This document shows positions 1-12,600 of a stretch of 64,000 nucleotides of DNA, piece after piece; position 1 is the first letter of the stretch; each line of letters begins with the position of its first letter. The stretch comes from Candidatus Omnitrophota bacterium (GTDB lineage: Bacteria; Omnitrophota; Gorgyraeia; B26-G9). The DNA lies in NCBI GenBank assembly GCA_018817165.1, contig JAHITY010000128.1:5161-69160 (forward strand), given 5' to 3'. The notes under the pieces were generated by a model that saw only the letters and a program-made list of their open reading frames with translations, searched no databases and was not told the origin of the DNA. The position numbers were made by a program, and so were the translations under genes.

Positions 1-26
1 AGAGTGGTAACGAAATTAAATTGTAT

Positions 27-81
27 GACCGAAATAACCCTGAACCGAATGAGCGAAGCGAATTCTGGTTCCGGGGTAAAA
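27..81 (+). promoter_or_regulatory. Copy 1 of a duplicated ~55-nt motif (GAAATAACCCTGAACCGAA..TTCTGGTTCCGGGGTAAA) upstream of the sigma-factor gene. It may be an ECF-type autoregulated promoter (GAACC -35-like, TCTGG 16 nt downstream)
   Basis: About 85% identical to 221..277. It contains GAACC and, 16 nt downstream, TCTGGTT, resembling ECF -35/-10 spacing. The window edge prevents seeing the upstream context. Confidence 0.3.
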
Positions 82-220
82 CAAATAACAATACAATTTA
101 GGAAATAATTTACGTTGGCGTAAATTAGGCGATGCAGCCATTTACAATGCAGAGTTATGCATGTGAATGGCTTTTTTATTTGAGTACATAATTTACAGAG
201 CGAAGAGAAGTAAATGATAA

Positions 221-277
221 GTGCGAAAATAACCTTGAACCGAACGATCAAAGCGAGTTCTGGTTCCGGGGTAAAGG
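221..277 (+). promoter_or_regulatory. Copy 2 of the duplicated ~55-nt motif, lying just upstream of the favoured ATG at 286
   Basis: Direct repeat of 27..81. It is followed by AAAGGGGA (SD-like) and ATG 286. Confidence 0.3.
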
Positions 278-285
278 GGAAAAAT

Positions 286-816
286 ATGGAAATGACATTT
301 GAAGCATTGGTACAAAAAATAAATCCAAAGATCAAGGCAATTGCCAATAGGCTTGATGGTAAGTATACATCATTTTCTGATGATGATCTGTATCAAGAGT
401 CTTTGCTGCGGCTTTGGCAGAAGTTTAATGAAAGCAAGCTTGAGGATAAGACGGAAAGCTATATTGTTCAGGGTTGTTCTTTTGATATGAGGAATTATAT
501 CCGTACGCATTTTAAAGGTGTAGATCGCCGCTCAGTCAGCGCATATACCCCGATTAATGAGCAAGGTAATCTGCTGATTGATATTCTTCCTGAGAAGGAA
601 GCGGATAATCGGGAAGAGGTTTATGATACAGCAATGACTCTCGAAGATATCAGTCGAAAGCTGAGCGACAGAGAAAAGATTGTTTTGGAGAAGTCTTCAG
701 CAGGTTTAACTACCCGAGAGATTGGTGAGTATATTGGGACATCACATGTAATGGTAGTTAAAATAAAGAAGAAAATCCGCGATAAATGTCTGAAATTAGG
801 AGTAAAAAACAAGTAA
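286..816 (+). CDS. RNA polymerase sigma factor, sigma-70 family, ECF-like (regions 2 and 4 only)
   Basis: Region-2-like DDDLYQESLLRLWQKF and a region-4 HTH LTTREIGEYIGTSHVMVVKIKKKIRDK. The ORF track begins at 214, but the first 24 codons overlap repeat copy 2. ATG 286 has SD AAAGGGGA 6 nt upstream. Confidence 0.6.
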   Translation: MEMTFEALVQKINPKIKAIANRLDGKYTSFSDDDLYQESLLRLWQKFNESKLEDKTESYIVQGCSFDMRNYIRTHFKGVDRRSVSAYTPINEQGNLLIDILPEKEADNREEVYDTAMTLEDISRKLSDREKIVLEKSSAGLTTREIGEYIGTSHVMVVKIKKKIRDKCLKLGVKNK

Positions 817-972
817 CGGTTACCAAAATAACATTTTGATTACTTGTGTTACCATAAGAAGTATCAGATGAGTATATTTACCGAACAATGGTAAACTTAA
901 TTCATCAAAATCAGCAAAGAGTTAATTGTTAAGCTGAGATAGTAAAACACACATTGTTGTGTGACAAACAAA

Positions 973-1064
973 GGCGTTCTTAATTATATTAAGGAACGTT
1001 TTTTTATTTAAAGACTATGGCGTCTTTTCCCTCAGAGCTATTGAGAGAACAGACGCTTTTTTTA
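973..1064 (+). terminator. Two tandem intrinsic terminator-like hairpins after the sigma gene
   Basis: GGCGTTCTTAA..TTAAGGAACG followed by a T7 run, then GGCGTCT..AGACGC followed by a T7 run. Confidence 0.5.
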
Positions 1065-1090
1065 TTTTAAAGCTCTTTGATAATTTAAAA

Positions 1091-1174
1091 AATAATAATG
1101 ATTCCGAAAGTGCCTGCTTGGCCGCAGTCATTTCGGACTTAATTCTCCCGCCGAACTGCGGCGGGATCATTTAG
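1091..1174 (+). promoter_or_regulatory. N-leader repeat unit, modules A+B, immediately upstream of the P-II-like gene
   Basis: AATAATAATGATTCC header. Hairpin A is TCCGAAAGTGCCTGC-TTGGCC-GCAGTCATTTCGGA (1103..1137). Hairpin B is CCCGCCG-AACT(G)-CGGCGGG (1147..1165). Then ATCATTTAGGGAGG SD and ATG 1183. Confidence 0.6.
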
Positions 1175-1182
1175 GGAGGTGA

Positions 1183-1506
1183 ATGGTGAAAAAGATAGAA
1201 TGTATTATCCGGCAGGAAAAACTAAAAGAGTTAAGTGGCGCGCTTCGTTTGGCAGGAATAGCCGGAGCAACGGTTAGCGAGGTAAAAGGTTTTGGTAAGG
1301 AAGTGTCAAGGCCAGATAACTTTTTATTTTTACCAAAAACAAAAATCGAACTTTATATCACCGATGATCTTGTTGAAGATGTTGTGGCAACGATTATCAG
1401 TTGTTGTAAAGATGAATCCCTGGGAAGCGGTAAAATTGCTATTCTTCCCCTTGATGATTGTATTAGAGTAAGAACAGGAGAACGTGGAGATAAGGCTATT
1501 GTTTAA
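1183..1506 (+). CDS. P-II family-like small nitrogen regulatory protein (short T-loop variant, 107 aa)
   Basis: C-terminal GKIAILPLDDCIRVRTGERGDKAIV parallels [25 protein letters not shown] of the two glnK copies. N-terminal beta-alpha-beta VKKIECIIRQEKL...VSEVKGFGKE. Confidence 0.55.
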   Translation: MVKKIECIIRQEKLKELSGALRLAGIAGATVSEVKGFGKEVSRPDNFLFLPKTKIELYITDDLVEDVVATIISCCKDESLGSGKIAILPLDDCIRVRTGERGDKAIV

Positions 1507-1799
1507 ATAATAATGATTCCCGAATCAGCAGCTGGTCGCTGCTTCTCGGGCGAAATTCGAGCTGGCTGACTTGACGTCACTTGTGTTCCGTAAGTCAGGC
1601 GTAAATAATAATGATTCCGAAAGTGTCTGCTTGGCCGCAGCCATTTCGGACTAAATTCGAGCAGGCTGACTTGACGTCACTTGTGTTCCGTAAGTCAGGC
1701 ATAATAATAATGATTCCGAAAGTGTCTGCTTGGCCGCAGCCATTTCGGACTAAATTCGAGCAGGCTGACTTGACGTCACTTGTGTTCCGTAAGTCAGGC
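1506..1799 (+). repeat. Tandem array of 3 N-leader repeat units (A'+C, A+C, A+C) between the P-II-like stop codon and the amt1 SD
   Basis: Units are at 1506..1600, 1604..1700 and 1703..1799. Units 2 and 3 are identical, with a 99-nt period. Hairpin A' is TCCCGAATCAGCAGC-TGGTC-GCTGCTTCTCGGG. Hairpin C is GGCTGACTTGACG-TCACTTGTGTT-CCGTAAGTCAGGC. It is followed by TCTCATTTAAAGGAGG and ATG 1819. Confidence 0.7.
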
Positions 1800-1818
1800 T
1801 CTCATTTAAAGGAGGGGT

Positions 1819-3195
1819 GTGATGTTGAATACTTTTTGGAGAAAAACGCGATTTATATTAGGTGGGTTTTTAATGTTGTCTCTATTGTGGGCATTACCGG
1901 CATTTGCTGAAGGAGAGACAGCAGAGAGCAATGCAACGGCAATAAATACAGTTTGGACTTTGCTGGCAGCGTTCTTGGTATTTTTTATGCAGGCTGGGTT
2001 TGCTATGGTTGAGACCGGTTTTACCAGAGCGAAAAACTCATGCAATATTATGATGAAGAATTTAATGGATTTCAGTGTGGGGTCTATTGCTTATTGGCTG
2101 GTTGGTTTTGGGATTATGTTTGGCACAAGCGCAATGGGATTGTTTGGCACAGATGGTTTTTTCTTAAGCGCGGGAGATCCTTCAACTGGTGAAGGTTTAT
2201 GGAAGTTTGCTTATTGGATGTTTCAGGCAGTGTTTGCGGCAACAGCAGCTACTATAGTATCTGGGGCAATGGCTGAACGCACAAAATTTTCCGCATACCT
2301 TTTTTATAGCATTTTTATTACTGCTTTGATTTATCCGGTTGTTGGGCACTGGATATGGGGAGGCGGCTGGCTTGCCCAAAAAGGGATGATTGATTTTGCT
2401 GGTTCGACAGTTGTTCATTCGGTTGGTGGATGGGCTGCTCTTGCGGGTGCGATGCTACTTGGCCCAAGATTGGGTAAATATAATAAGGATGGTTCTTCCA
2501 AAGCAATTCCCGGACATAATATTCCTTTGGCAGCTTTAGGTGTATTTATTCTTTGGTTTGGCTGGTTTGGGTTTAATCCAGGTAGCACTACTGCAGGAAC
2601 AAATCTTAGTATTGCAACAATAGCAGTAACTACAAACTTGGCAGCAGCAGCTGGTTCGATAATCGCGATGTTTGTAACTTGGAAAAGATATGGAAAACCT
2701 GATTTATCAATGACTTTAAACGGAGCGCTAGCCGGATTGGTAGCAATCACTGCTCCTTGCGCAAGTGTTTCACCATTAAGCGCGATAATAATTGGAGCGA
2801 TTGGTGGTTTACTGGTTGTATTTAGTGTTGAATTTATTGATAAAGTTTTAAAGATAGATGATCCTGTAGGCGCGATATCAGTACATGGTGTTTGCGGCGC
2901 TTGGGGAACATTGAGTGTTGGTCTTTTTGCCCAAGCTGCGTATGGTGAATCAAGCGGGATGGGCGCGATCAATGGTTTGTTTTTCGGCGGCGGAACTGCT
3001 CAATTAATGACGCAGATTATTGGTATTGCCGCTGTATTTGCTTGGGTTTTTGTCGCGGCACTAATTGTGTTTTCTATAGCAAAAGCAATCATGGGTTTAC
3101 GGGTAACAGATGAAGAACAGCTAAAAGGTCTTGATATTGGCGAACATGGCATGGAAGCTTATGCTGGATTTCAGATCTTTTCAACAGAATCATAA
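1819..3195 (+). CDS. amtB: Ammonium transporter Amt (copy 1), with signal peptide
   Basis: 458 aa, polytopic. Amt signatures [20 protein letters not shown] and GFNPGS. About 60% identical to copy 2. Confidence 0.93.
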   Translation: MMLNTFWRKTRFILGGFLMLSLLWALPAFAEGETAESNATAINTVWTLLAAFLVFFMQAGFAMVETGFTRAKNSCNIMMKNLMDFSVGSIAYWLVGFGIMFGTSAMGLFGTDGFFLSAGDPSTGEGLWKFAYWMFQAVFAATAATIVSGAMAERTKFSAYLFYSIFITALIYPVVGHWIWGGGWLAQKGMIDFAGSTVVHSVGGWAALAGAMLLGPRLGKYNKDGSSKAIPGHNIPLAALGVFILWFGWFGFNPGSTTAGTNLSIATIAVTTNLAAAAGSIIAMFVTWKRYGKPDLSMTLNGALAGLVAITAPCASVSPLSAIIIGAIGGLLVVFSVEFIDKVLKIDDPVGAISVHGVCGAWGTLSVGLFAQAAYGESSGMGAINGLFFGGGTAQLMTQIIGIAAVFAWVFVAALIVFSIAKAIMGLRVTDEEQLKGLDIGEHGMEAYAGFQIFSTES

Positions 3196-3306
3196 AATAT
3201 AAAATTTGATTTAGCCCGTGCCTTTGTTTTAAATTACTAAAGGTGCGGGTAAAATCAAAACATTCCGCCATAAGGCGGCGGGATATTTAATGGGAGGGGA
3301 AATAAA

Positions 3307-3648
3307 ATGAAACTGATAATAGCAATGATTCAACCGCATAAATTACCGGATGTTAAAAAAGCGCTTTTTGAAGCAGATGTACACAAGATGACAGTAACCA
3401 ATGTTTTAGGTTGCGGGCAGCAAAAAGGTTTTACTGAAACATACCGCGGAGTTATTCATGAAGTTAATTTATTGAAAAAACTAAAACTTGAAATCGCGGT
3501 AAATGAGCAATATGTAAAAACTACAGTAGACGCGATTATTAAAGGCGCGCGGATCGGTAAAATCGGGGATGGTAAGATCTTTGTCCTGGATATGCCGGAA
3601 TGTATTCGGATTAGAACCGGAGAGACTGGTTCAAAAGCAATTGGCTGA
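3307..3648 (+). CDS. glnK: Nitrogen regulatory protein P-II (GlnK-type, copy 1)
   Basis: 113 aa. [54 protein letters not shown]. Located directly downstream of amt. Confidence 0.93.
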
Positions 3649-3683
3649 CTTGACGTCGCTAAAAAAGCTCCGTAAGTCAGGTG
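3643..3683 (+). promoter_or_regulatory. Solo module-C hairpin of the N-leader repeat, beginning inside the glnK1 stop codon
   Basis: GGCTGACTTGACG-TCGCTAAAAAAGCT-CCGTAAGTCAGG followed by TGCTCATTTAA. It has the same stem as the other C modules and a different loop. Confidence 0.5.
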
Positions 3684-3774
3684 CTCATTTAATTATTAAG
3701 TTACCGAAAACAAGTTTTTTTTACTTGTATATTTGTAAATAACTAACTGGTACATTGAAGTACCCACAAAAAAC

Positions 3775-3824
3775 AAAGACGTTTTGATCCTTTTTTAAAA
3801 AAGGGTTGAAACGTCTTTTTATTT
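3775..3824 (+). terminator. Intrinsic terminator after the amt1-glnK1 operon
   Basis: 10-bp stem AAAGACGTTT/AAACGTCTTT, with an inner CCTTTTTT/AAAAAAGG hairpin in the loop, followed by TTTTTATTT. Confidence 0.6.
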
Positions 3825-3834
3825 AGGTGATATA

Positions 3835-4014
3835 ATGGAAAATATAAATTTGATTCAAGCCCTAAAGCAAGTTAAAGAAGAACGGGGCTATACCTTGTAT
3901 GATTTATCTAAGAAATTGGATATACAGGTCTCTACGGTTTCTCGCTGGTTTAAAACAAATAGAATTAATCGGGTTTACGCGGAGTTAGTAAAAGAAAAAC
4001 TAAAACTTTTTTGA
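3835..4014 (+). CDS. Small HTH DNA-binding protein (59 aa, XRE-like). It is not in the ORF track, which has a 60-aa cutoff
   Basis: MENINLIQALKQVKEERGYTLYDLSKKLDIQVSTVSRWFKTNRINRVYAELVKEKLKLF. It has a helix-turn-helix (LYDLSKKLDIQVSTVSRW) and lies between the two amt-glnK modules. Confidence 0.45.
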   Translation: MENINLIQALKQVKEERGYTLYDLSKKLDIQVSTVSRWFKTNRINRVYAELVKEKLKLF

Positions 4015-4078
4015 TTTTTTTTAAATAATATTTCTCAGTTAATTAATCAGTTCCATAACCAAAGGAGGGAAGATTATA

Positions 4079-5419
4079 ATGGGCAAGTTTAGTAAAATTG
4101 TTGGTATTAGTATGGCAACGGTCTTAACAATTTTCATGATAAGTCCGTTCGCGTTTGCCGCAGATACCAGCATGGCAGAAGTAGTAAGAGGTTTGGATAC
4201 TGTCTGGGTTTTGATCGCGGCGTTTCTGGTTTTTTTTATGCAGGCTGGTTTTGGCATGGTAGAAGCGGGTTTTATCCGAGCGAAAAATACCTGTAATATT
4301 TTAACTAAAAATTTTCTTGATTTTTGCATGGCTTCAATTGGTTTTTTTGTTTTTGGTTATGCGATTATGTTTGGTACGGGTAATGGTTTTATGGGCATGC
4401 AGGGCTGGTGCTTATCTGGAGCGCAAAGCGGAGCAAATATTCCATTAGCTGCTTTTTGGCTGTTTCAGGCTGCTTTTTGCGGAGCGGCAGCAACAATTGT
4501 TGCCGGCGGCATGGCAGAGAGAATGAAGTTTGTGTCATATCTTGCTTATTCATTTATAATCTCGGCATTTATTTATCCTATAGTAGGGCATTGGGTATGG
4601 GGCGGAGGCTGGTTAAGCGGATTAGGCTTTGCTGATTTTGCTGGTTCAACTGTTGTTCATGCGGTGGGCGGTTTTGCCGCATTGATCGGAACAATAATTT
4701 TAAAACCAAGAGAAGGTAAATATAATAAAGATGGTTCGGCAAACGCGATTTCCGGGCATTCTATTCCTTTGGCTTCTTTGGGTGTATTTATTCTTTGGTT
4801 TGGCTGGTTTGGTTTTAATCCCGGTTCAACGCTGGGAGTGGGCAATGGAGATTTAATTGCTCGCGTTGCGATAAATACAAATTTAGCAGCAGCTGCCGGA
4901 GGGATTGTGGCAATGCTCACAGTTTGGAAAATGTTTGGTAAACCTGATTTATCAATGGCAATGAATGGGGCCTTAGCTGGTCTTGTGGCAATTACCGCTC
5001 CTTGTGCTTTTGTCGATTCTTGGGCAGCGATTGTGATTGGCGCGGTTGGCGGAGTATTGGTGGTATTGGCTGTAGTTTTACTGGATAAATTACATATTGA
5101 TGATCCTGTCGGCGCTTTTCCTGTTCATGGAGTAAATGGAGTTTGGGGTACACTATCAGTTGGAATTTTTGGTAAACAGGCTCTGGGTCTTGCGCATGAG
5201 GGATTAATTTATGGCGGTGGATTTACGCAGTTAGCAATTCAGCTTTTGGGGGTTGCTACTGTTGCTGTGTTTATTTTGATCACTATGGGAACTGTGTTTA
5301 AAATTCTTAACAGTACTATTGGTTTAAGAGTTTCTCGAGAAGAAGAATTAAGAGGGCTTGATATTTGCGAGCATGGTATGGAATCGTATGCTGGTTTTCA
5401 GATTTTTGTTACAGAATAA
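4079..5419 (+). CDS. amtB: Ammonium transporter Amt (copy 2)
   Basis: 446 aa paralog. [36 protein letters not shown] upstream. Confidence 0.93.
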
Positions 5420-5433
5420 AAGGGAGGGTTTAT

Positions 5434-5775
5434 ATGAAATTAATTATTGCGATGATTCAGCCGTATAAATTGCCGGATGTAAAGCAGGCGCTTTTTGAGG
5501 CAGGGGTGCATAAAATGACGGTAACCAATGCGCTGGGCTGCGGACAGCAAAAGGGTTTTACTGAGACATACCGCGGAGTTATTCATGAGGTGAATCTGCT
5601 TAAAAAAATTAAACTGGAAATCGCGGTTAATGCGGATTTTGTCCAGCCGACAATTGACGCGATTATTAAAGGAGCAAGAACCGGTAATATCGGAGATGGA
5701 AAGATTTTTGTCCTGGATATGCCGGAATGCATCCGTATTCGTACCGGAGAAAAGGGCAAAGAAGCTATTGGGTAA
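5434..5775 (+). CDS. glnK: Nitrogen regulatory protein P-II (GlnK-type, copy 2)
   Basis: 113 aa, about 85% identical to copy 1. The ORF track starts at 5365, but the homologous MKLIIAMIQ start at 5434 has SD AAGGGAGGG. Confidence 0.93.
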
Positions 5776-5872
5776 GAATTTTATTGACAAGTTACCAGAA
5801 AATTGATAAAGTTACTTTAATCATATAGGCACAAAGAAGTGCTTAAAAATGAGGCATAATGAAAAAGACAAT

Positions 5873-5912
5873 GGTGTTCTTTTGGTTGTATAAAAGAACG
5901 CCATTTTTATTT
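5873..5912 (+). terminator. Terminator-like hairpin between glnK2 and glnN
   Basis: GGTGTTCTTTT-GGTTGTAT-AAAAGAACGCC (11 bp with one G.U) followed by ATTTTTATTT. Confidence 0.4.
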
Positions 5913-5958
5913 ACAAATTAGATTTTAAATTATGAATTAAAACAATAAGGAGGAATTT

Positions 5959-8061
5959 ATGGCAAGTGTAACTAAAATTTTTGGGGAGCTGACTTTTAGT
6001 AAAAAAGTCATGGCGGAAAAGTTAAGCAAGGATGTGTATAGTAAATTACTGGCAACTATCGAAGGCGGACAAGCGCTGGATGAGTCAATTGCCGGTGATG
6101 TGGCTCATGCAATGAAGGAATGGGCAATTGAAAACGGAGCAACCCATTTCACTCATTGGTTTCAACCGCAACGCGGCGGCACTGCGGAAAAACATGATGC
6201 TTTTCTGAGCTATGGTAAGAATGGCGAAATAGTTGACAGATTATCAGCCAGACAGCTTATTCAATCAGAGCCTGATGCATCATCATTTCCATCAGGGGGA
6301 ATGCGTTCTACTTTTGAAGCACGTGGATATACTGCTTGGGACCCGACATCTCCCGCGTTTTTATTAGAAGCGGGTGATACCAAGACTTTGGTAATCCCAT
6401 CTGTTTTCTTATCCTGGACAGGTGATGTTTTAGATCTAAAGACTCCGATGCTGCGTTCAATGAAAGCAGTTAGCAAAGCAGCGCTTAGATTGCAGGGACT
6501 GTTGGGTAATAAAAAAGTTAAATCAATTAAAGTTTTTGGCGGACCAGAACAAGAATATTTTCTTTTCTCAAAGCAACTTTTTGAAACGCGTCCGGACTTA
6601 ATTATTTGCGGACGGACTTTATTCGGTGCTCAGCCGGCAAAAGGCCAGCAAATGGAAGATCATTATTTTGGCGCGATCAAATCAAAAGTAATTGAGTTTA
6701 TGGAAGATTTTGATAATGAATTGTACCGCAGAGGAATTCCCGCGAAAACTCGTCATAATGAAGTTTCGCCAAACCAGTTTGAAATCGCTCCTTTATATGA
6801 AGAGGTAAATTTGGCAATAGATCATAATCTGCAATTAATGGATATTATCCAAAAAGTCGCTGATCGTTATGATTTGGTTGCTGTGCTTCATGAAAAACCG
6901 CTGGGCGGCGTAAATGGTTCGGGAAAACATTTTAATATGTCGATCGGTGATAATACGGGCGCTAATTATTTTGAGCCATCAAGCAGTCCTCAGAATAATC
7001 TGATTTTTCTCCTCTCTTTAGGCGCGCTTATGCTGGGTGTTGACAAATTTGGCGGATTATTAAGGGGTGTGGTTGCTGATGCGGGAAATGATCATCGCTT
7101 GGGTGCTAATGAAGCTCCGCCGGCAATTATCTCAGTTTATCTGGGTGAATATCTTGATGCTATTCTTAATGAAATCGAGGGAATAGGCGCGGTTACTGAT
7201 AAAAAACTCTCGGAAATTTATTTAGGGCTGCAAGATTTGCCAAAAGTAGCAAAAGATACTTCTGATAGAAATAGAACATCACCATTGGCTTTTACTGGCA
7301 ATAAATTTGAGTTCAGAGCAGTGGGTTCATCACAGAACTGTGCTGAGGCAGCTACTTTATTAAATATGCTTATGGCTTATGGATATAATGAAATTGCTGA
7401 TGGAATTGAGAAAAGTACAGCAAAATCAGATGCTAAAGCAATTGAAGTATTAGAAAAAGTATTGAAAAAAACAAAACATGTGCGGTTTGAGGGAAATAAT
7501 TATTCCGAAAAATGGCATAAAGAAGCAGCCAAGCGCGGATTGCCAAATACAAAAAATACTCCTGAAGCTTTAGAACAGTTTTTACAAAAAGATGTAATTA
7601 AATTGTATGAAAGCATGGGTATTTTAACTGAAAAAGAAGTTCATTCAAAAATCGAAATTAAACTTGAAGCCTATAATAAAATTAAGGAAATCGAGTTTAA
7701 AACAGCAATGAATATGGCTAAAACATTGGTGATGCCGGCGATATTAAAGCAGATTGGATTACTTGCTGACGCGAATGCTGGAATAAAATCAGCTGGAATT
7801 AAAACAATAAGCAGCATTGCTTCAGATATAAAAGAAGCGAATAAAGTTTATGAGGCATTACAGGTTGGAATCAGTGGTTTGAATAAAGAATTAACAATGG
7901 CAGCAAAGGCTGATGATGAGTTGAAGAAATCAAAACTCATGGCTGGAAAATGTGTTGCTGCTTTAGATAAGCTAAGGGTTGCGGTAGATACAGCTGAAGA
8001 ATTAGTTGCTGATGAACTTTGGCCAATGGCAAAATATCAGGAACTATTGCTGGTTTTATAA
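5959..8061 (+). CDS. glnN: Glutamine synthetase type III (GlnN)
   Basis: 700 aa. N-terminal KEWAIENGATHFTHWFQP block characteristic of GSIII. Catalytic NGSGKHFNMS. The size matches GSIII rather than GSI. Confidence 0.88.
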   Translation: MASVTKIFGELTFSKKVMAEKLSKDVYSKLLATIEGGQALDESIAGDVAHAMKEWAIENGATHFTHWFQPQRGGTAEKHDAFLSYGKNGEIVDRLSARQLIQSEPDASSFPSGGMRSTFEARGYTAWDPTSPAFLLEAGDTKTLVIPSVFLSWTGDVLDLKTPMLRSMKAVSKAALRLQGLLGNKKVKSIKVFGGPEQEYFLFSKQLFETRPDLIICGRTLFGAQPAKGQQMEDHYFGAIKSKVIEFMEDFDNELYRRGIPAKTRHNEVSPNQFEIAPLYEEVNLAIDHNLQLMDIIQKVADRYDLVAVLHEKPLGGVNGSGKHFNMSIGDNTGANYFEPSSSPQNNLIFLLSLGALMLGVDKFGGLLRGVVADAGNDHRLGANEAPPAIISVYLGEYLDAILNEIEGIGAVTDKKLSEIYLGLQDLPKVAKDTSDRNRTSPLAFTGNKFEFRAVGSSQNCAEAATLLNMLMAYGYNEIADGIEKSTAKSDAKAIEVLEKVLKKTKHVRFEGNNYSEKWHKEAAKRGLPNTKNTPEALEQFLQKDVIKLYESMGILTEKEVHSKIEIKLEAYNKIKEIEFKTAMNMAKTLVMPAILKQIGLLADANAGIKSAGIKTISSIASDIKEANKVYEALQVGISGLNKELTMAAKADDELKKSKLMAGKCVAALDKLRVAVDTAEELVADELWPMAKYQELLLVL

Positions 8062-8098
8062 GGATTAGTTTAGTTGATAATTAACAATTAGGATCTAA

Positions 8099-8135
8099 AG
8101 AGCGATACTTTAAAAAAGTATCGCTCTTATGTCCA
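8099..8135 (+). terminator. Intrinsic terminator after glnN
   Basis: AGAGCGATACT-TTAAAAAA-GTATCGCTCT, an 11-bp perfect stem followed by TAT. Confidence 0.5.
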
Positions 8136-8156
8136 TTAAAAAGTAACAAAATATTC

Positions 8157-8240
8157 ATAATAATGACTCCAAAAGTGCCTGCTTGGCCGCAGTCATTTTG
8201 GACTAAATCCCTGCCAAAAAGCGGCGGGATCATTTAAAGG
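8157..8240 (+). promoter_or_regulatory. N-leader repeat unit, modules A+B, upstream of the amidotransferase gene
   Basis: ATAATAATGACTCC, hairpin A TCCAAAAGTGCCTGC-TTGGCC-GCAGTCATTTTGGA (8168..8202), hairpin B CCTGCC-AAAAAGC-GGCGGG, then ATCATTTAAAGG and ATG 8251. Confidence 0.6.
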
Positions 8241-8250
8241 ACATTTAAAA

Positions 8251-8979
8251 ATGATATATTTTCTTGAACACGAACCAATCGAAGGCCCGGGGATGTTAAA
8301 GCCTTTGTTTGAAAATAATGGTTTTCTTACTTCGGTAATCAAGCTTTATGATAATCAGGATTTACCGCAGGACTTTGATTCAATAGAAGCAATTGTAAGT
8401 CTTGGCGGCCCAATGAATGTTTATCAAGAAGAGGTTTATCCTTTTTTAAAAAAAGAAGATGAATTCCTTAAAAAAATTATTAAGCTAGATATCCCTTGTT
8501 TGGGTATATGTCTTGGCTCGCAATTAATCGCTAAAGCGGAAAAAGCGCAAGTTAAGAAAGCGGAAAAAGAAGAAATCGGCTGGTTTAAAGTCTCGTTAAC
8601 TGAACATGGCAAGAAAGATGATTTATTCCATCTGGTAAATGAGCAACTTGAAGTTTTTCAATGGCATTCAGATACTTTTAGCGTTCCGGTTGGCGGGGTT
8701 TTATTGGCGCAGGGTTCTGTTTGCCGCAATCAGGCGTTTAGAATAGGTAATAATGTTTATGGATTGCAGTTTCATCTGGAAGTTACGGATAAAGAAGTTT
8801 TTGATTGGACTGGCAAATATTTTAATATTGCGGATTCAGAAAAACAGGAATACGCGAAAGATATGCTGTCAAAATATAGCGAAATAAAAAAAGATTTTGA
8901 GCTGCAAATGGATGTTATTGGCGCGAATTTTCTTAAAATTATTGAGAAGAGAAAGATCGCTGTGGCACAGGAAGTTTAA
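8251..8979 (+). CDS. Class I glutamine amidotransferase-like protein (stand-alone GATase1 domain)
   Basis: Catalytic-Cys motif GICLGSQLIA, and a downstream His in QFHLEV. 242 aa. Confidence 0.7.
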   Translation: MIYFLEHEPIEGPGMLKPLFENNGFLTSVIKLYDNQDLPQDFDSIEAIVSLGGPMNVYQEEVYPFLKKEDEFLKKIIKLDIPCLGICLGSQLIAKAEKAQVKKAEKEEIGWFKVSLTEHGKKDDLFHLVNEQLEVFQWHSDTFSVPVGGVLLAQGSVCRNQAFRIGNNVYGLQFHLEVTDKEVFDWTGKYFNIADSEKQEYAKDMLSKYSEIKKDFELQMDVIGANFLKIIEKRKIAVAQEV

Positions 8980-9016
8980 AAAATTTTAAATATCAGTGCC
9001 CAAAAATTAGGCAAAT

Positions 9017-9342
9017 TAAAATAATGATTCCCGAATCAGCAGCTAGTCGCTGCTTCTCGGGCTAAATTTCCCGCCAGAAAACAGCGGGATAAACGAGCAG
9101 GCTGACTTGACGTCGCATAGAACGTTCCGTAAGTCAGGCTAAATAATAATGATTCCAAAATATCTGCTTGGCCGCAGCTATTTCGGACTAAATTCGAGCA
9201 GGCTGACTTGACGTCGCATAGAACGTTCCGTAAGTCAGGCTAAATAATAATGATTCCGAAAGTATCTGCTTGGCCGCAGCTATTTCGGACTAAATTCGAG
9301 CAGGCTGACTTGACGTCGCATAGAACGTTCCGTAAGTCAGGC
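9017..9342 (+). repeat. Tandem array of 3 N-leader repeat units (A'+B+C, A+C, A+C) upstream of the Fis-like gene and gltBD
   Basis: Units are at 9017..9139, 9142..9240 and 9243..9342, with a period of about 101 nt. The C loop here is TCGCATAGAACGTT. It ends TCTCATTTAAGGGGAT followed by ATG 9359. Confidence 0.7.
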
Positions 9343-9358
9343 TCTCATTTAAGGGGAT

Positions 9359-9622
9359 ATGAGCGCATACACAGATAAAATTAGTATTCTCCAAGAACAA
9401 ATAAAGGATGTTGAGACTTTTTTTCTAAAAAAAGATACAAAACATTTATATAAACACATATTGGAAATAGTCGAAAAACCTTTGATTGAAATGGTTTTAA
9501 AATCAACAAAAGGCAATCAGAAAAAAGCGGCGGTGCTTTTGGGGATTAACCGAAATACATTGTTTGTTAAAATTAAAAAACTTAAGATAAACGCTAAAGA
9601 ATTCAAAGATGCTTCAGATTGA
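9359..9622 (+). CDS. Fis-family (HTH_8) DNA-binding mini-protein
   Basis: 87 aa. C-terminal [24 protein letters not shown] is a Fis/NtrC-type helix-turn-helix. It lies 37 nt upstream of gltB on the same strand. Confidence 0.6.
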
Positions 9623-9658
9623 AAAGCAAAATTCTGAAAAAGAAAGGAATTATTCCGA

Positions 9659-12600
9659 ATGAAGTATAAACATTTACCTGCCAAGCAGGGGCTTTATGAC
9701 CCTAGCTTTGAAAAAGATGCTTGCGGTGTTGGGTTTGTTTGCAATATCAAGGGAGTTAAATCCAATCAGATAATTAAAGATGGATTGACTGTTTTAAGGC
9801 GTATGGCGCATCGTGGTGCCGTGGGCGCTGATCCTAATACCGGGGACGGTGCGGGTCTGCTGATTCAGATGCCGCATAAGTTTTTGGAGAAGGCGGCTGC
9901 TCAGGCAAAGATTAAATTACCGGAATTCGGGTTTTATGGCAGTGGTCTGGTGTTTTTGCCAACAGTTAAAAAAGAACGGGATATCTGCAAGCTTAATTTT
10001 GAAAAAATTATTGAGCAGCAGGGACAGATACTGCTTGGCTGGCGGAAAGTCCCGGTTGATAATTCCTGTATTGGCCCAGTGGCACAGGAGTCTGCTCCGA
10101 TCATCGAGCAGGTATTTATTGCGCGAAATGCCCAAATCCAAGATCCTATGGATTTTGAAAGAAAACTTTATGTTATTAGAAAACTTATTGAAAATTTTGT
10201 CCGCGGGGCTGATCTAAAACAAAAATCTTATTTCTATGTTTCTAATTTATCGTATAAAGTCCTTTCCTATAAAGGATTGCTAATGCCGCATCAGGTTGAT
10301 AAATTCTTTTTGGATTTAAAAGATAAAAGCATCGAAAGTGCTTTATGTTTAGTTCATTCTCGTTATAGTACTAATACTTTTCCTACTTGGGATTTGGCAC
10401 AGCCGTTTCGTTTTTTAGCGCATAATGGAGAAATAAATACGGTTAGAGGTAATATAAACTGGATGCAGGCACGGGAAGGTTTGTTGAAAAGTGAATTATT
10501 TGGGAAAAATATTGAGCAAATGAAACCAATTATTGTTCCGGGCGGAAGTGATTCCGCGACTTTGGATAATGCTTTGGAATTATTACTGCTTTCCGGCAGG
10601 TCTTTGCCGCATGTTATGATGATGCTTGTCCCCAGCGCATGGGAAAACAGTACTTTGATGGATAAAGAACTGCGCGATTTTTATAAATATCATGCTTGTT
10701 TTATGGAACCTTGGGATGGCCCGGCGGCAATTGCTGTGACCGATGGGATTAGAATCAGTGCCGCGCTTGATCGCAACGGTTTACGTCCGGCGCGTTATAT
10801 AGTAACAAAAAACGATTTTATTGTTATGGCCTCTGAAGTTGGGGTTTTGGACATTGCTCCTAAGGATATTGCTTATTCCGGAAGACTTGAGCCGGGAAAA
10901 ATGTTTTTTATTGATACTGAGCAAGGAAGAATTATTAATGACGAAGAATTGAAAAAAAATATTGCTATTTCTCAGCCTTATGGGAAATGGATAGATAGTA
11001 ATTTAGTGGAATTAGCCAGTTTAAAACCAGCTAAGGCTGATAAAAGTAAACAGGAAGATATTCTTACTTGTTTGAAAAGTTTTGGCTACAGTCGAGAAGA
11101 TTTAAAGATGATCATAAAGCCCATGGCTCAAACCGGTCAAGAGCCGACTCATTCTATGGGTAATGATGCTCCGCATGCTATTTTATCGAAAAAGCCGCAA
11201 GTGCTTTATTCCTATTTTAAACAGCTTTTTGCTCAGGTTACCAATCCGGCAGTTGATCCGATCAGGGAAGAAATTGTTATGAGCTGGCAAAGTTTTGTTG
11301 GCGCGCAAAAAAATATTCTAGAGGAAACTCCCGAACATTGCCATACTCTTCGGGTAAAAAACCCCCTATTATCAGACGCTGATCTGGCTAAGATAAAAAA
11401 TGTAAATGCTAAAGGGTTTAAAGCTAAAACAATCTCTCTTTTATTTAATCTGAATGAAAAGAAAAGTTTTATGCAGGCGATTAAAGGGATTTGCGATCAG
11501 GCAGTATTGGCTATTCAGCAGGGGTATACGTTTATTATTTTAAGTGATCGCGGTACTGATAAAGATCAGGCGGCAATTCCCGCGCTTTTAGCAACCGGAG
11601 CGGTGCATCATCATTTAGTCAGAAAAGCCCTGCGTACCCAGATTGGAATCGTAGTGGAGAGTGCAGAGCCAAGAGAGGTGCATCATTTTGCCCTTTTGTT
11701 CGGATATGGTGCTGATTGTATTAATCCTTATTTAATATTTAGGACATTAGATTATTTAATTAAAGAAAAAGAATTAGATATTAGTTTTGAGGAAGCAGCA
11801 AAAAATTATATTAATGCTGTAAAAAAAGGAATATTGAAAATAACTTCTAAAATGGGTATTTGTACTTTGCAAAGTTATAAAGGCGCCCAGATTTTTGAAG
11901 CTTTGGGATTGCATGATCAGGTAATTGAGCGCTGTTTTAAAGGAACTCCTTCGCGCATCGGAGGAGCTGATTTTGAAATTATCCGACAGGAAACTATTTT
12001 AAAACATAAACATGCTTATCCTGAGCGGGAAATCGGTGTCACTGATTTAGCTGTTGGTGGTGTATATCAATGGAAAAGAGATGGAGAAGCGCATCTTTGG
12101 AACCCTCAGAGTATTACTGCTTTGCAGGATGCGACCCGCACAGGCAGTTATGCTAAATATCAGGACTTTGCTAAACTAATAAATGATCAAGCGCAGCAGC
12201 CGATTACTTTGCGCAGTTTGCTTGAATTTAAAGCTAAAGAATCTATTCCGGTTGAGCAGGTTGAGCCTGTGAAAAAAATTGTTAAACGGTTTGTTACCGG
12301 AGCAATGAGTTTTGGTTCAATCAGTAAAGAAATACATGAGTCTTTGGCAATTGTGATGAATCGCTTGGGTGGAATGTCCAATACCGGAGAAGGCGGAGAA
12401 GATCCAGCTCGTTTTAACCGTTTGCCAAATGGTGATTTAAAACGCAGCGCGATCAAGCAGGTTGCGTCCGGACGTTTCGGAGTTACCACAAATTATTTGG
12501 TTAATGCTGATGAATTGCAGATTAAAGTTGCCCAAGGCGCAAAGCCGGGTGAGGGCGGTCAGTTGCCGGGACATAAGGTTAGTTCGATTATTGCTAAGAC

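Follow-up and report, generated by a model that had tools for sequence, protein, structure and literature searches.

A P-II protein with a shortened T-loop at the head of an ammonium-uptake operon in Omnitrophota

P-II proteins act through their T-loop, and a P-II gene in which this loop has been shortened raises the question of what its product can still do. Such a gene, called sPII here, lies near one end of a 64,000-nucleotide (nt) stretch of DNA from Candidatus Omnitrophota bacterium (assembly GCA_018817165.1, contig JAHITY010000128.1, positions 5,161 to 69,160 of the forward strand). This whole stretch is referred to below as the window, and all coordinates are counted in it. A preliminary description of the locus presented sPII as a third P-II-family gene with a truncated T-loop, not paired with an ammonium transporter (amt) gene and embedded in a putative regulatory RNA region. 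We find that sPII heads an operon with amt and a canonical glnK. Our preferred reading, held with moderate confidence, is that it encodes a lineage-specific P-II signal protein, a sensor of nucleotide and 2-oxoglutarate that would be induced together with the ammonium-uptake genes and would modulate a partner within their module.

The gene and its shortened loop are located as follows.

1183..1506, + strand: sPII coding sequence, short-T-loop P-II (open reading frame, Pfam PF00543, AlphaFold2 model, Foldseek, substitution rates)
1294..1326, + strand: codons of the shortened T-loop, residues G38-L48 (GKEVSRPDNFL), with Arg43 and Pro44 (alignments, column counts)

The open reading frame encodes 107 amino acids (aa), running MVKKIECIIRQEKLKEL...GERGDKAIV. 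The real start is probably GTG 1186, giving 106 aa, since the homologues begin MKKIEC and the public entry P0001 begins one codon later; this 106-aa protein, from a metagenome-assembled genome of Candidatus Omnitrophica, is 99% identical to sPII and annotated as 'P-II family nitrogen regulator'. A Shine-Dalgarno sequence, GGGAGG, lies upstream at 1174-1179. In line with the preliminary description, which counted sPII as the third such gene of the island, the 64 kb of the window contain exactly three P-II genes by tblastn: sPII, glnK1 (3307-3648) and glnK2 (5437-5775). The identity of sPII to the two window GlnK proteins is 33-35%, and to Escherichia coli GlnB 45%.

Profile search and structure prediction both place sPII within the P-II fold, contrary to the outcome that the preliminary description had named as refuting its assignment. 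Against the Pfam P-II model (PF00543) it scored 75.7 bits (E 4e-21, cut-off 25), residues 3-100 covering positions 2-102 of the 102 in the model. An AlphaFold2 single-chain model built on an alignment of 42 family members has the order beta-alpha-beta-beta-alpha-beta, with a mean predicted local distance difference test (pLDDT) of 91.8 and a predicted template modelling (TM) score of 0.82; its best Foldseek matches in the PDB were all GlnK/GlnB (TM 0.82-0.90, and 0.85-0.90 for the top hits; probability 1.00). When the family profile was run against PDB sequences, Aquifex GlnB (2eg1) came out best (E 1e-35) and the 105-aa NifI1 (9p1x chain H) weakest of 41 matches (E 1.7e-11), so sPII is best classed as a GlnB/GlnK derivative and not as NifI1. 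Fold and length class are those of canonical GlnB/GlnK (2eg1, E. coli GlnK), with 45-52% identity to GlnB-type proteins. No match to the profile of the cyclic di-AMP receptor PstA/DarA (CdAMP_rec, PF06153) was found at E <= 1; glnK1 gave 13.8 bits with that profile, below threshold.

NifI1 nevertheless shares several features with sPII: a length of 105 aa, a T-loop shorter than that of GlnB/GlnK (PMC12439982), and an operon with a longer-loop P-II paralogue, NifI2, as sPII has with glnK. Unlike NifI1, sPII has amt and not nitrogenase as its operon partner, and no nifH, nifD or nifK gene was seen in the nitrogen island of the window. The identification of sPII as NifI1 was rejected on sequence (profile score of 47.6 bits versus 125 for GlnB) and on this context.

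The T-loop deletion could also be a sign of decay, sPII then being a degenerate copy of glnK or glnB without function. Consistent with this, sPII falls below the NCBIfam equivalog cut-offs for GlnB (NF008111, 76.3 versus 202 bits) and GlnK (NF007946, 65 versus 181 bits); however, the canonical glnK copies of the window fail the same cut-offs (120.5 and 111.3 bits), and the test discriminates poorly. Comparison of sPII with its orthologue in the closest relative, locus L001, gave a ratio of non-synonymous to synonymous substitution rates (dN/dS) of 0.11 at a dS of 0.95, which marks sPII as a functional gene under purifying selection and not a decaying copy. Moreover, 16 alignment columns are invariant over the 42 family members, which are 54-84% identical, and synteny is kept in dozens of species-level genomes. 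On these conservation data, the decay of sPII can be considered effectively refuted.

In canonical P-II proteins the T-loop has its full length of about 19-20 residues; R47 is at the tip, and Tyr51 or Ser49 is the modification site. A loop of this kind is lacking in sPII. The truncation described previously, including the strings quoted for it, proved correct: the loop is seven residues shorter, as a net deletion. MAFFT and hhalign place the gap at R47-V53, Tyr51 included; hmmsearch splits it 5+2, so that R47 would be matched by Arg43 and Tyr51 by residue 47. At residue 47 the window protein has Phe, and the family has Tyr 26 times, Phe 15 times and Leu once (n=42). Judged from these alignments, modification of the Tyr51 type is not conserved across the family and is impossible in the window protein, which would not be switchable by Tyr51-type uridylylation because the sole candidate position carries Phe and not Tyr. 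The predicted loop is short and ordered (pLDDT 82-88). Arg43, which is invariant, Pro44, which is nearly so, and Cys7 and Cys75, each invariant or almost so, are specific to the clade and new with respect to GlnB/GlnK.

The ligand contacts listed for GlnK in PMC8395244, which comprise residues contacting nucleotide phosphate or 2-oxoglutarate, the Mg ligand Gln39 and Phe92 stacked on adenine, were mapped onto the 42 family members.

R/K9: Arg in 40/42
T29: kept in 41/42
Q39 (Mg ligand): Glu in 30, Gln in 10, Asn in 1, Asp in 1
K58: kept in 42/42
V64: Tyr in 38/42
G87, G89 and K90: kept in 42/42
F92 (adenine stacking): Ala in 33, Val in 6, Ile in 2, Thr in 1
R101: kept in 41/42
R103: kept in 42/42

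The B-loop GxGK, the C-terminal RxR, K58 and T29 are thus conserved as in GlnB/GlnK. By homology, the contacts to the phosphates and to the 2-oxoglutarate carboxylate are retained in sPII, with remodelling at the adenine pocket and at the Mg ligand.

The proteins that share these features form a discrete group. In a protein search, about 86 clusters (90% identity) ranked ahead of the first canonical 112-aa match, their lengths being 93-116 aa and in most cases 105-107 aa, and the hit list shows a break between sPII-like proteins (E 1e-60 to 7e-25) and canonical 112-aa proteins (from 4e-20 onwards). Wherever the source organism of an sPII-like cluster was named, it was Omnitrophica/Omnitrophota. 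In a survey of GTDB contigs with one genome per species, 214 relatives were confirmed and the best 80 loci kept; among these 80, nearly all matches down to L063 have 105-107 codons. Most of these loci are labelled Omnitrophota, the others Planctomycetia, Clostridia, Elusimicrobia or just 'bacterium'. A search of 1.84 billion representatives (50% identity) gave 12,058 P-II clusters, and the sPII clade falls into very few of them; its cluster P0046 scored 171 bits, and full-length matches to canonical 112-aa P-II regions begin at about 118 bits. These searches delimit sPII as a tight clade, with proteins of 105-107 aa and an occurrence almost restricted to Omnitrophota. Public annotation already names the protein as a P-II family regulator. 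Literature searches on a short-T-loop P-II clade and on P-II in Omnitrophota found no specific paper, in agreement with the earlier remark that such proteins are poorly characterised, and the clade is not described in the papers found.

Five other metagenomic P-II lineages (P0124, P0125, P0134, P0250 and P0255) are also short, at 101-106 aa, and begin MKKIEC or MKKLEC as sPII does. Unlike sPII, they have other loop sequences, shortened differently, and possess neither Cys75 nor the Arg-Pro motif, so that loop shortening in P-II proteins may have had more than one origin. A further protein, P0086 (113 aa), combines a canonical full T-loop with a C-terminal half like that of sPII (CREDKLGSGKIAVLP); the protein represents an intermediate form, or else its 655-nt contig is a chimeric assembly.

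What such a protein may do is best approached through its neighbours, of which the two downstream genes come first.

1819..3195, + strand: amt1, ammonium transporter, next cistron after sPII (Pfam Ammonium_transp, 457.5 bits)
3307..3648, + strand: glnK1, canonical full-length P-II, third cistron (Pfam P-II, 94.6 bits)

In the window sPII is the first cistron of sPII-amt1-glnK1. The claim that sPII stands apart from amt has to be withdrawn: amt1 follows on the same strand after 313 nt, a scan between the two genes found no hairpin-plus-U-run terminator, and in 36 of 59 loci the sPII orthologue has a same-strand amt gene within 3.5 kb (31 of the 49 with at least 2.5 kb of downstream sequence). 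sPII thereby shares with glnK the genetic linkage to amt that serves as a functional criterion of GlnK. The window island comprises genes for sigma, amt, glnK, glutamine synthetase (GS), glutamine amidotransferase (GATase) and gltBD, and the recurrent order among the relatives is (GS)-(GAF-ANTAR)-(NadE)-ECF sigma-sPII-porin-like outer-membrane protein-amt-glnK-GS-GATase-Fis-type helix-turn-helix (HTH)-gltB-gltD, where ECF stands for extracytoplasmic function. In most Omnitrophota that carry it, sPII usually stands at the head of an ammonium-uptake cluster sPII-(porin)-amt-glnK, and in about 34 loci the next gene, between sPII and amt, is that for the outer-membrane protein. The window has no porin gene in this place, which is occupied by a repeat array (window 1506-1818 versus L001 2319-3239). 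A canonical glnK follows amt in every locus that is long enough, sPII being always an extra P-II and never a substitute. Even in the rearranged loci L019, L030, L077 and L039, sPII remains with amt, glnK or porin, sometimes adjoining another P-II gene.

Heterotrimers of P-II paralogues occur, for instance between GlnB and GlnK of E. coli. In the same way, sPII, instead of acting as a homotrimer, could assemble with the co-transcribed full-length GlnK into mixed trimers, altering the number of long T-loops that plug the Amt trimer. The two genes share an operon in at least 34 loci and are directly adjacent in L019, L030, L039 and L077, and the pairing has a parallel in NifI1, which with its shorter T-loop forms heterotrimers with NifI2 (PMC12439982). 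The fit of the sPII profile is nevertheless far worse to NifI1 than to GlnB, sPII is only distantly related to the window GlnK proteins, as the identities given above indicate, and orphan members of the family, discussed below, occur without a neighbouring P-II gene. We consider mixed trimers rather unlikely, and the general reading of sPII as a signal protein that modulates a partner remains the one we prefer.

The conserved candidate control elements of the operon lie upstream of sPII, where the following features were recognized, together with one distant gene.

286..816, + strand: ECF-type sigma-70 family gene (NCBIfam TIGR02937, 59.7 bits versus a cut-off of 42.9)
819..847, + strand: promoter-like motif GTTACC-N16-TACTTGT, 3 nt after the sigma stop codon
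948..1063, + strand: two putative serial ANTAR-type attenuators (sequence, RNA fold, related leaders, hexaloop rule of PMC3369931)
36077..36814, + strand: GAF-ANTAR antiterminator gene, candidate regulator of the attenuators (Pfam GAF 79.6 bits, ANTAR 72.7 bits)

A second copy of the motif lies at 3700-3728, before HTH-amt2-glnK2, so that the window has two exact or near-exact matches versus 0.1 expected; a degenerate copy ending TACTTTA is found at 5792-5820, before the type III GS gene (GSIII, 5959-8061). The related loci and the window (0.9 Mb) contain 39 exact copies, all on the gene strand. Of these, 22 are located 135-336 nt upstream of sPII orthologues and most others before GS or amt operons, with a few elsewhere (e.g. 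L006, L016). In compact leaders the first hairpin begins 10-15 nt after the motif, and this spacing fits a promoter with TACTTGT as the -10 element. A general scan for sigma-70-type sites found no more of them than in shuffled sequence. The adjacent ECF-type sigma may recognize the motif, and is the obvious candidate since the motif sits next to its gene. Of 55 loci, 19 have a sigma orthologue no more than 800 nt upstream of sPII, as have 18 of the 32 that are linked to amt.

Directly upstream of the second amt-glnK pair, a gene for a 59-aa HTH protein (3835-4014) was noticed, which has counterparts of 53-92% identity in many related loci; its product is possibly a further DNA-binding regulator of the cluster. 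The leader of the sigma gene itself (window 1-285) is also structured: two copies of a 49-nt repeat, 90% identical, lie at 32-80 and 227-275, and a hairpin at about 145-178 carries a U-run. Upstream of their sigma gene, L001 and L005 have a TTGACA-N17-TATAxT promoter and leaders that contain terminators. The layout suggests a cascade in which a housekeeping promoter and an attenuator would control sigma, and sigma would serve promoters with attenuators of their own.

ANTAR proteins recognize dual-hexaloop RNA in which the first loop position is A and the fourth is G, and ANTAR sites have been reported upstream of P-II, amt, GS and glutamate synthase (GOGAT) genes (PMC3369931). The sPII leader of the window has the features of a predicted ANTAR target, namely two hexaloop hairpins of which the second overlaps a terminator. 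Hairpin P1 (948-963) has the hexaloop AUUGUU, with A at position 1 and G at position 4; P2 (967-978, loop AAAGGC) overlaps terminator T1 (973-998, U-run 999-1005), and P2' (1013-1024, loop UAUGGC) overlaps terminator T2 (1019-1056, U-run 1057-1063). RNA folding of 848-1190 gave z = -6.3 and predicted both terminator hairpins, which a general terminator scan missed through its loop and GC rules. The order after the motif in the leaders is P1, CAC-[A/G]NNGNN-GTG, then P2, (A/G)AC-NNNGGC-GT(T/C), then the intrinsic terminator, for which the 3' half of P2 serves as 5' arm. Related leaders are enriched 36-fold in the P2 motif, and 21 of 38 passed a strict test for P1, P2 and U-run; the same design occurs in leaders of about 20 Omnitrophota genomes. 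In the window, attenuators follow each copy of the motif (948-1063, 3745-3820 and 5828-5912), with two in series before sPII.

The GAF-ANTAR architecture was called uncharacterized in PMC3369931. The window gene lies 35 kb from the nitrogen island and its product is 74% identical to that of the in-cluster gene of L014 and L049; in about nine loci GAF-ANTAR is encoded inside the nitrogen cluster (GS-GAF-ANTAR-sigma-sPII). In known ANTAR nitrogen operons (EutV/NasR/AmiR-type leaders; Clostridium NitR, Geobacter GnfR), the second of two hexaloop hairpins also overlaps a terminator, and P-II and amt genes are reported targets (PMC3369931), as the sequence of the sPII-amt1 leader suggests for this operon. 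Unlike these systems, the sPII leader has a GAF-ANTAR protein as its candidate regulator, two attenuators in series and a promoter-like motif beside an ECF-type sigma gene. The conserved control region of sPII, overlooked in the preliminary description, would be 819-1063, comprising motif and attenuators, and not the repeats that surround the gene.

This arrangement bears on the possibility that sPII itself controls gene expression. It would sense metabolism and act on the ECF sigma, in the manner of an anti-sigma factor, or on the GAF-ANTAR protein, and so close a feedback loop in the nitrogen regulon. P-II is known to act on the GAF domain of NifA. Sigma is often present upstream, sPII occupies the usual place of anti-sigma genes, the gene next upstream encodes GAF-ANTAR in L020 and L049, as does the second gene upstream in several further loci, and sPII is the first product of an operon with two attenuators. 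On the other hand, sPII keeps with amt, glnK or porin and not with sigma in the rearranged loci L019, L030 and L077, the sigma and sPII genes are separate transcription units, split by the promoter-like motif and the terminators, and no P-II/ANTAR or P-II/sigma interaction was found in literature searches. We therefore regard control of expression by sPII as unlikely. Similarly doubtful is the proposal that sPII talks directly to GAF-ANTAR, to the ECF-type sigma or to both, the P-II signal being read out as antitermination or sigma activity. If true, the feedback circuit would be self-contained, comprising a sigma-dependent promoter, a pair of ANTAR gates and, as first product, sPII, and would differ from those of NtrBC, NtcA/PipX, TnrA/GlnR or AmtR.

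Between the attenuators and amt1, sPII is surrounded by repeats of two kinds, A and B.

1091..1165, + strand: A repeat unit (1091-1144) and small GC hairpin (1147-1165), just upstream of the Shine-Dalgarno sequence GGGAGG
1506..1800, + strand: three-unit array A'B, AB, AB between sPII and amt1 (repeat comparison)

The preliminary description, which had the gene flanked by such repeats on both sides, was right as to the A unit upstream and the three-unit array downstream; the upstream element is not the complete [A+B] unit that was claimed, there being no B copy. The overlap of the stop codon with the array header was also seen correctly, TAA (1504-1506) sharing one base with the header AATAATAATGATTCC (1506-1520). 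The last B of the array is followed by CTCATTTAAAGGAGG and then by the amt1 start. A full unit consists of A, GC hairpin and B and measures 99-102 nt. The copies at 1604-1700 and 1703-1799 are 100% identical, which indicates recent duplication. Both A and B fold as hairpins, with a few compensatory changes between copies and no U-run after any of them.

In the window the repeats are confined to the nitrogen island (1091-1165, 1506-1800, 3643-3681, 8157-8229 and 9017-9342). Outside the window they were found only in L001 (2321-2434 and 4675-4794), with none upstream of the L001 sPII gene, and blastn-short detected no A/B repeats around the orthologues in L003, L005 and all other loci. The idea that sPII is embedded in a regulatory RNA region does not, then, extend to the family; the A/B repeats are a lineage-specific addition and do not define it. 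An Rfam gathering search of the whole window, and one of 1-10000 at E <= 10, returned no family for the repeats or leaders, and a known riboswitch such as the glnA RNA was rejected for lack of a match. A leader peptide, suggested by an open reading frame (1611-1910) running through the 99-nt units, was rejected because its ATG is ACG in one L001 copy, and also by the frame change and stop in A' and by compensatory changes in the hairpin arms. A Sigma-54 promoter in unit A was rejected on inspection, there being no GC at -12. One possibility is that the repeats are processing or stability hairpins ahead of the Shine-Dalgarno sequence of each cistron. At five cistron starts (sPII, 1166-1182; amt1, 1800-1818; glnK1, 3284-3306; GATase, 8229-8250; Fis-HTH, 9343-9358), a hairpin is followed by a motif like (A/C)TCATTTA and then by a purine-rich, Shine-Dalgarno-like stretch, the sequence before glnK1 being ATATTTAA; this combination may be a processing or stability element or an anti-Shine-Dalgarno element.

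Proximity within the window had led to the suggestion that sPII binds the flanking A/B repeat RNA. The absence of the repeats around all orthologues but that of L001, where the upstream A unit is missing, speaks against it, and the 50 best structural matches listed for sPII are all GlnK/GlnB-type P-II, with no RNA-binding protein among them. Binding of the repeats by sPII is hardly credible.

Enzymes of nitrogen assimilation are the remaining candidate partners. Other P-II proteins bind GS, NAGK, BCCP or NadE2, and sPII could similarly regulate an enzyme of the cluster, e.g. glutamine synthetase, glutamate synthase or the glutamine-dependent NAD synthetase. Genes for GS (type I or III), gltB/gltD and NadE recur in the same clusters, and in L003 and L013 sPII is linked to GSIII-gltB without amt. 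However, compared with amt and glnK these genes lie at a greater distance from sPII, in separate units with their own motif and attenuator, and there is no specific signal towards any single enzyme. Regulation of one of them by sPII appears decidedly unlikely.

The reading that we prefer, a P-II signal protein serving the ammonium-uptake module, can be put as a sequence of steps. Read-through permitted by the GAF-ANTAR antiterminator, presumably under nitrogen limitation, would lead to the joint production of sPII, Amt and GlnK. The trimer of sPII would bind ATP or ADP, possibly Mg-ATP with 2-oxoglutarate, in the clefts between subunits. The short, ordered T-loop with Arg43-Pro44 would then bind and modulate a partner in the ammonium uptake or assimilation module, without any Tyr modification, and sPII would act as an auxiliary regulator beside canonical GlnK and not as its replacement.

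Several observations weigh against this reading. The pocket is remodelled at positions 39, 64 and 92, and its ligand set may therefore differ from that of canonical P-II, although the Glu mostly found at position 39 could still ligate Mg. About a third of the sPII family, more divergent in sequence (e.g. L006, L040, L050-L057), are orphans without nearby nitrogen genes and may do something else; no common partner gene was found beside these members, whose heterogeneous neighbours include a cation-efflux protein plus a receiver domain, peptidases and convergent gltBD. L003 and L013, in which sPII sits with porin and GS, have no amt in the cluster. Finally, the promoter and attenuator assignments draw on conservation and on the published ANTAR consensus.

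The sPII clade is a natural experiment on the capacities of a short, rigid T-loop, since seven loop residues have been lost and yet the ligand pocket and the position in the amt operon have been kept. Most alignments put the loss at the tip, which plugs Amt and carries the modification site. sPII also marks the head of an apparent Omnitrophota nitrogen regulon, in a phylum without a cultured model for regulation, whose parts would be a promoter-like motif by an ECF-type sigma gene, serial ANTAR attenuators, a GAF-ANTAR regulator and canonical GlnK proteins; this architecture is arguably more interesting than the sPII protein itself. A partner of sPII would add an output to the P-II signalling map and would help to explain nitrogen sensing in these ultra-small, often host-associated bacteria.

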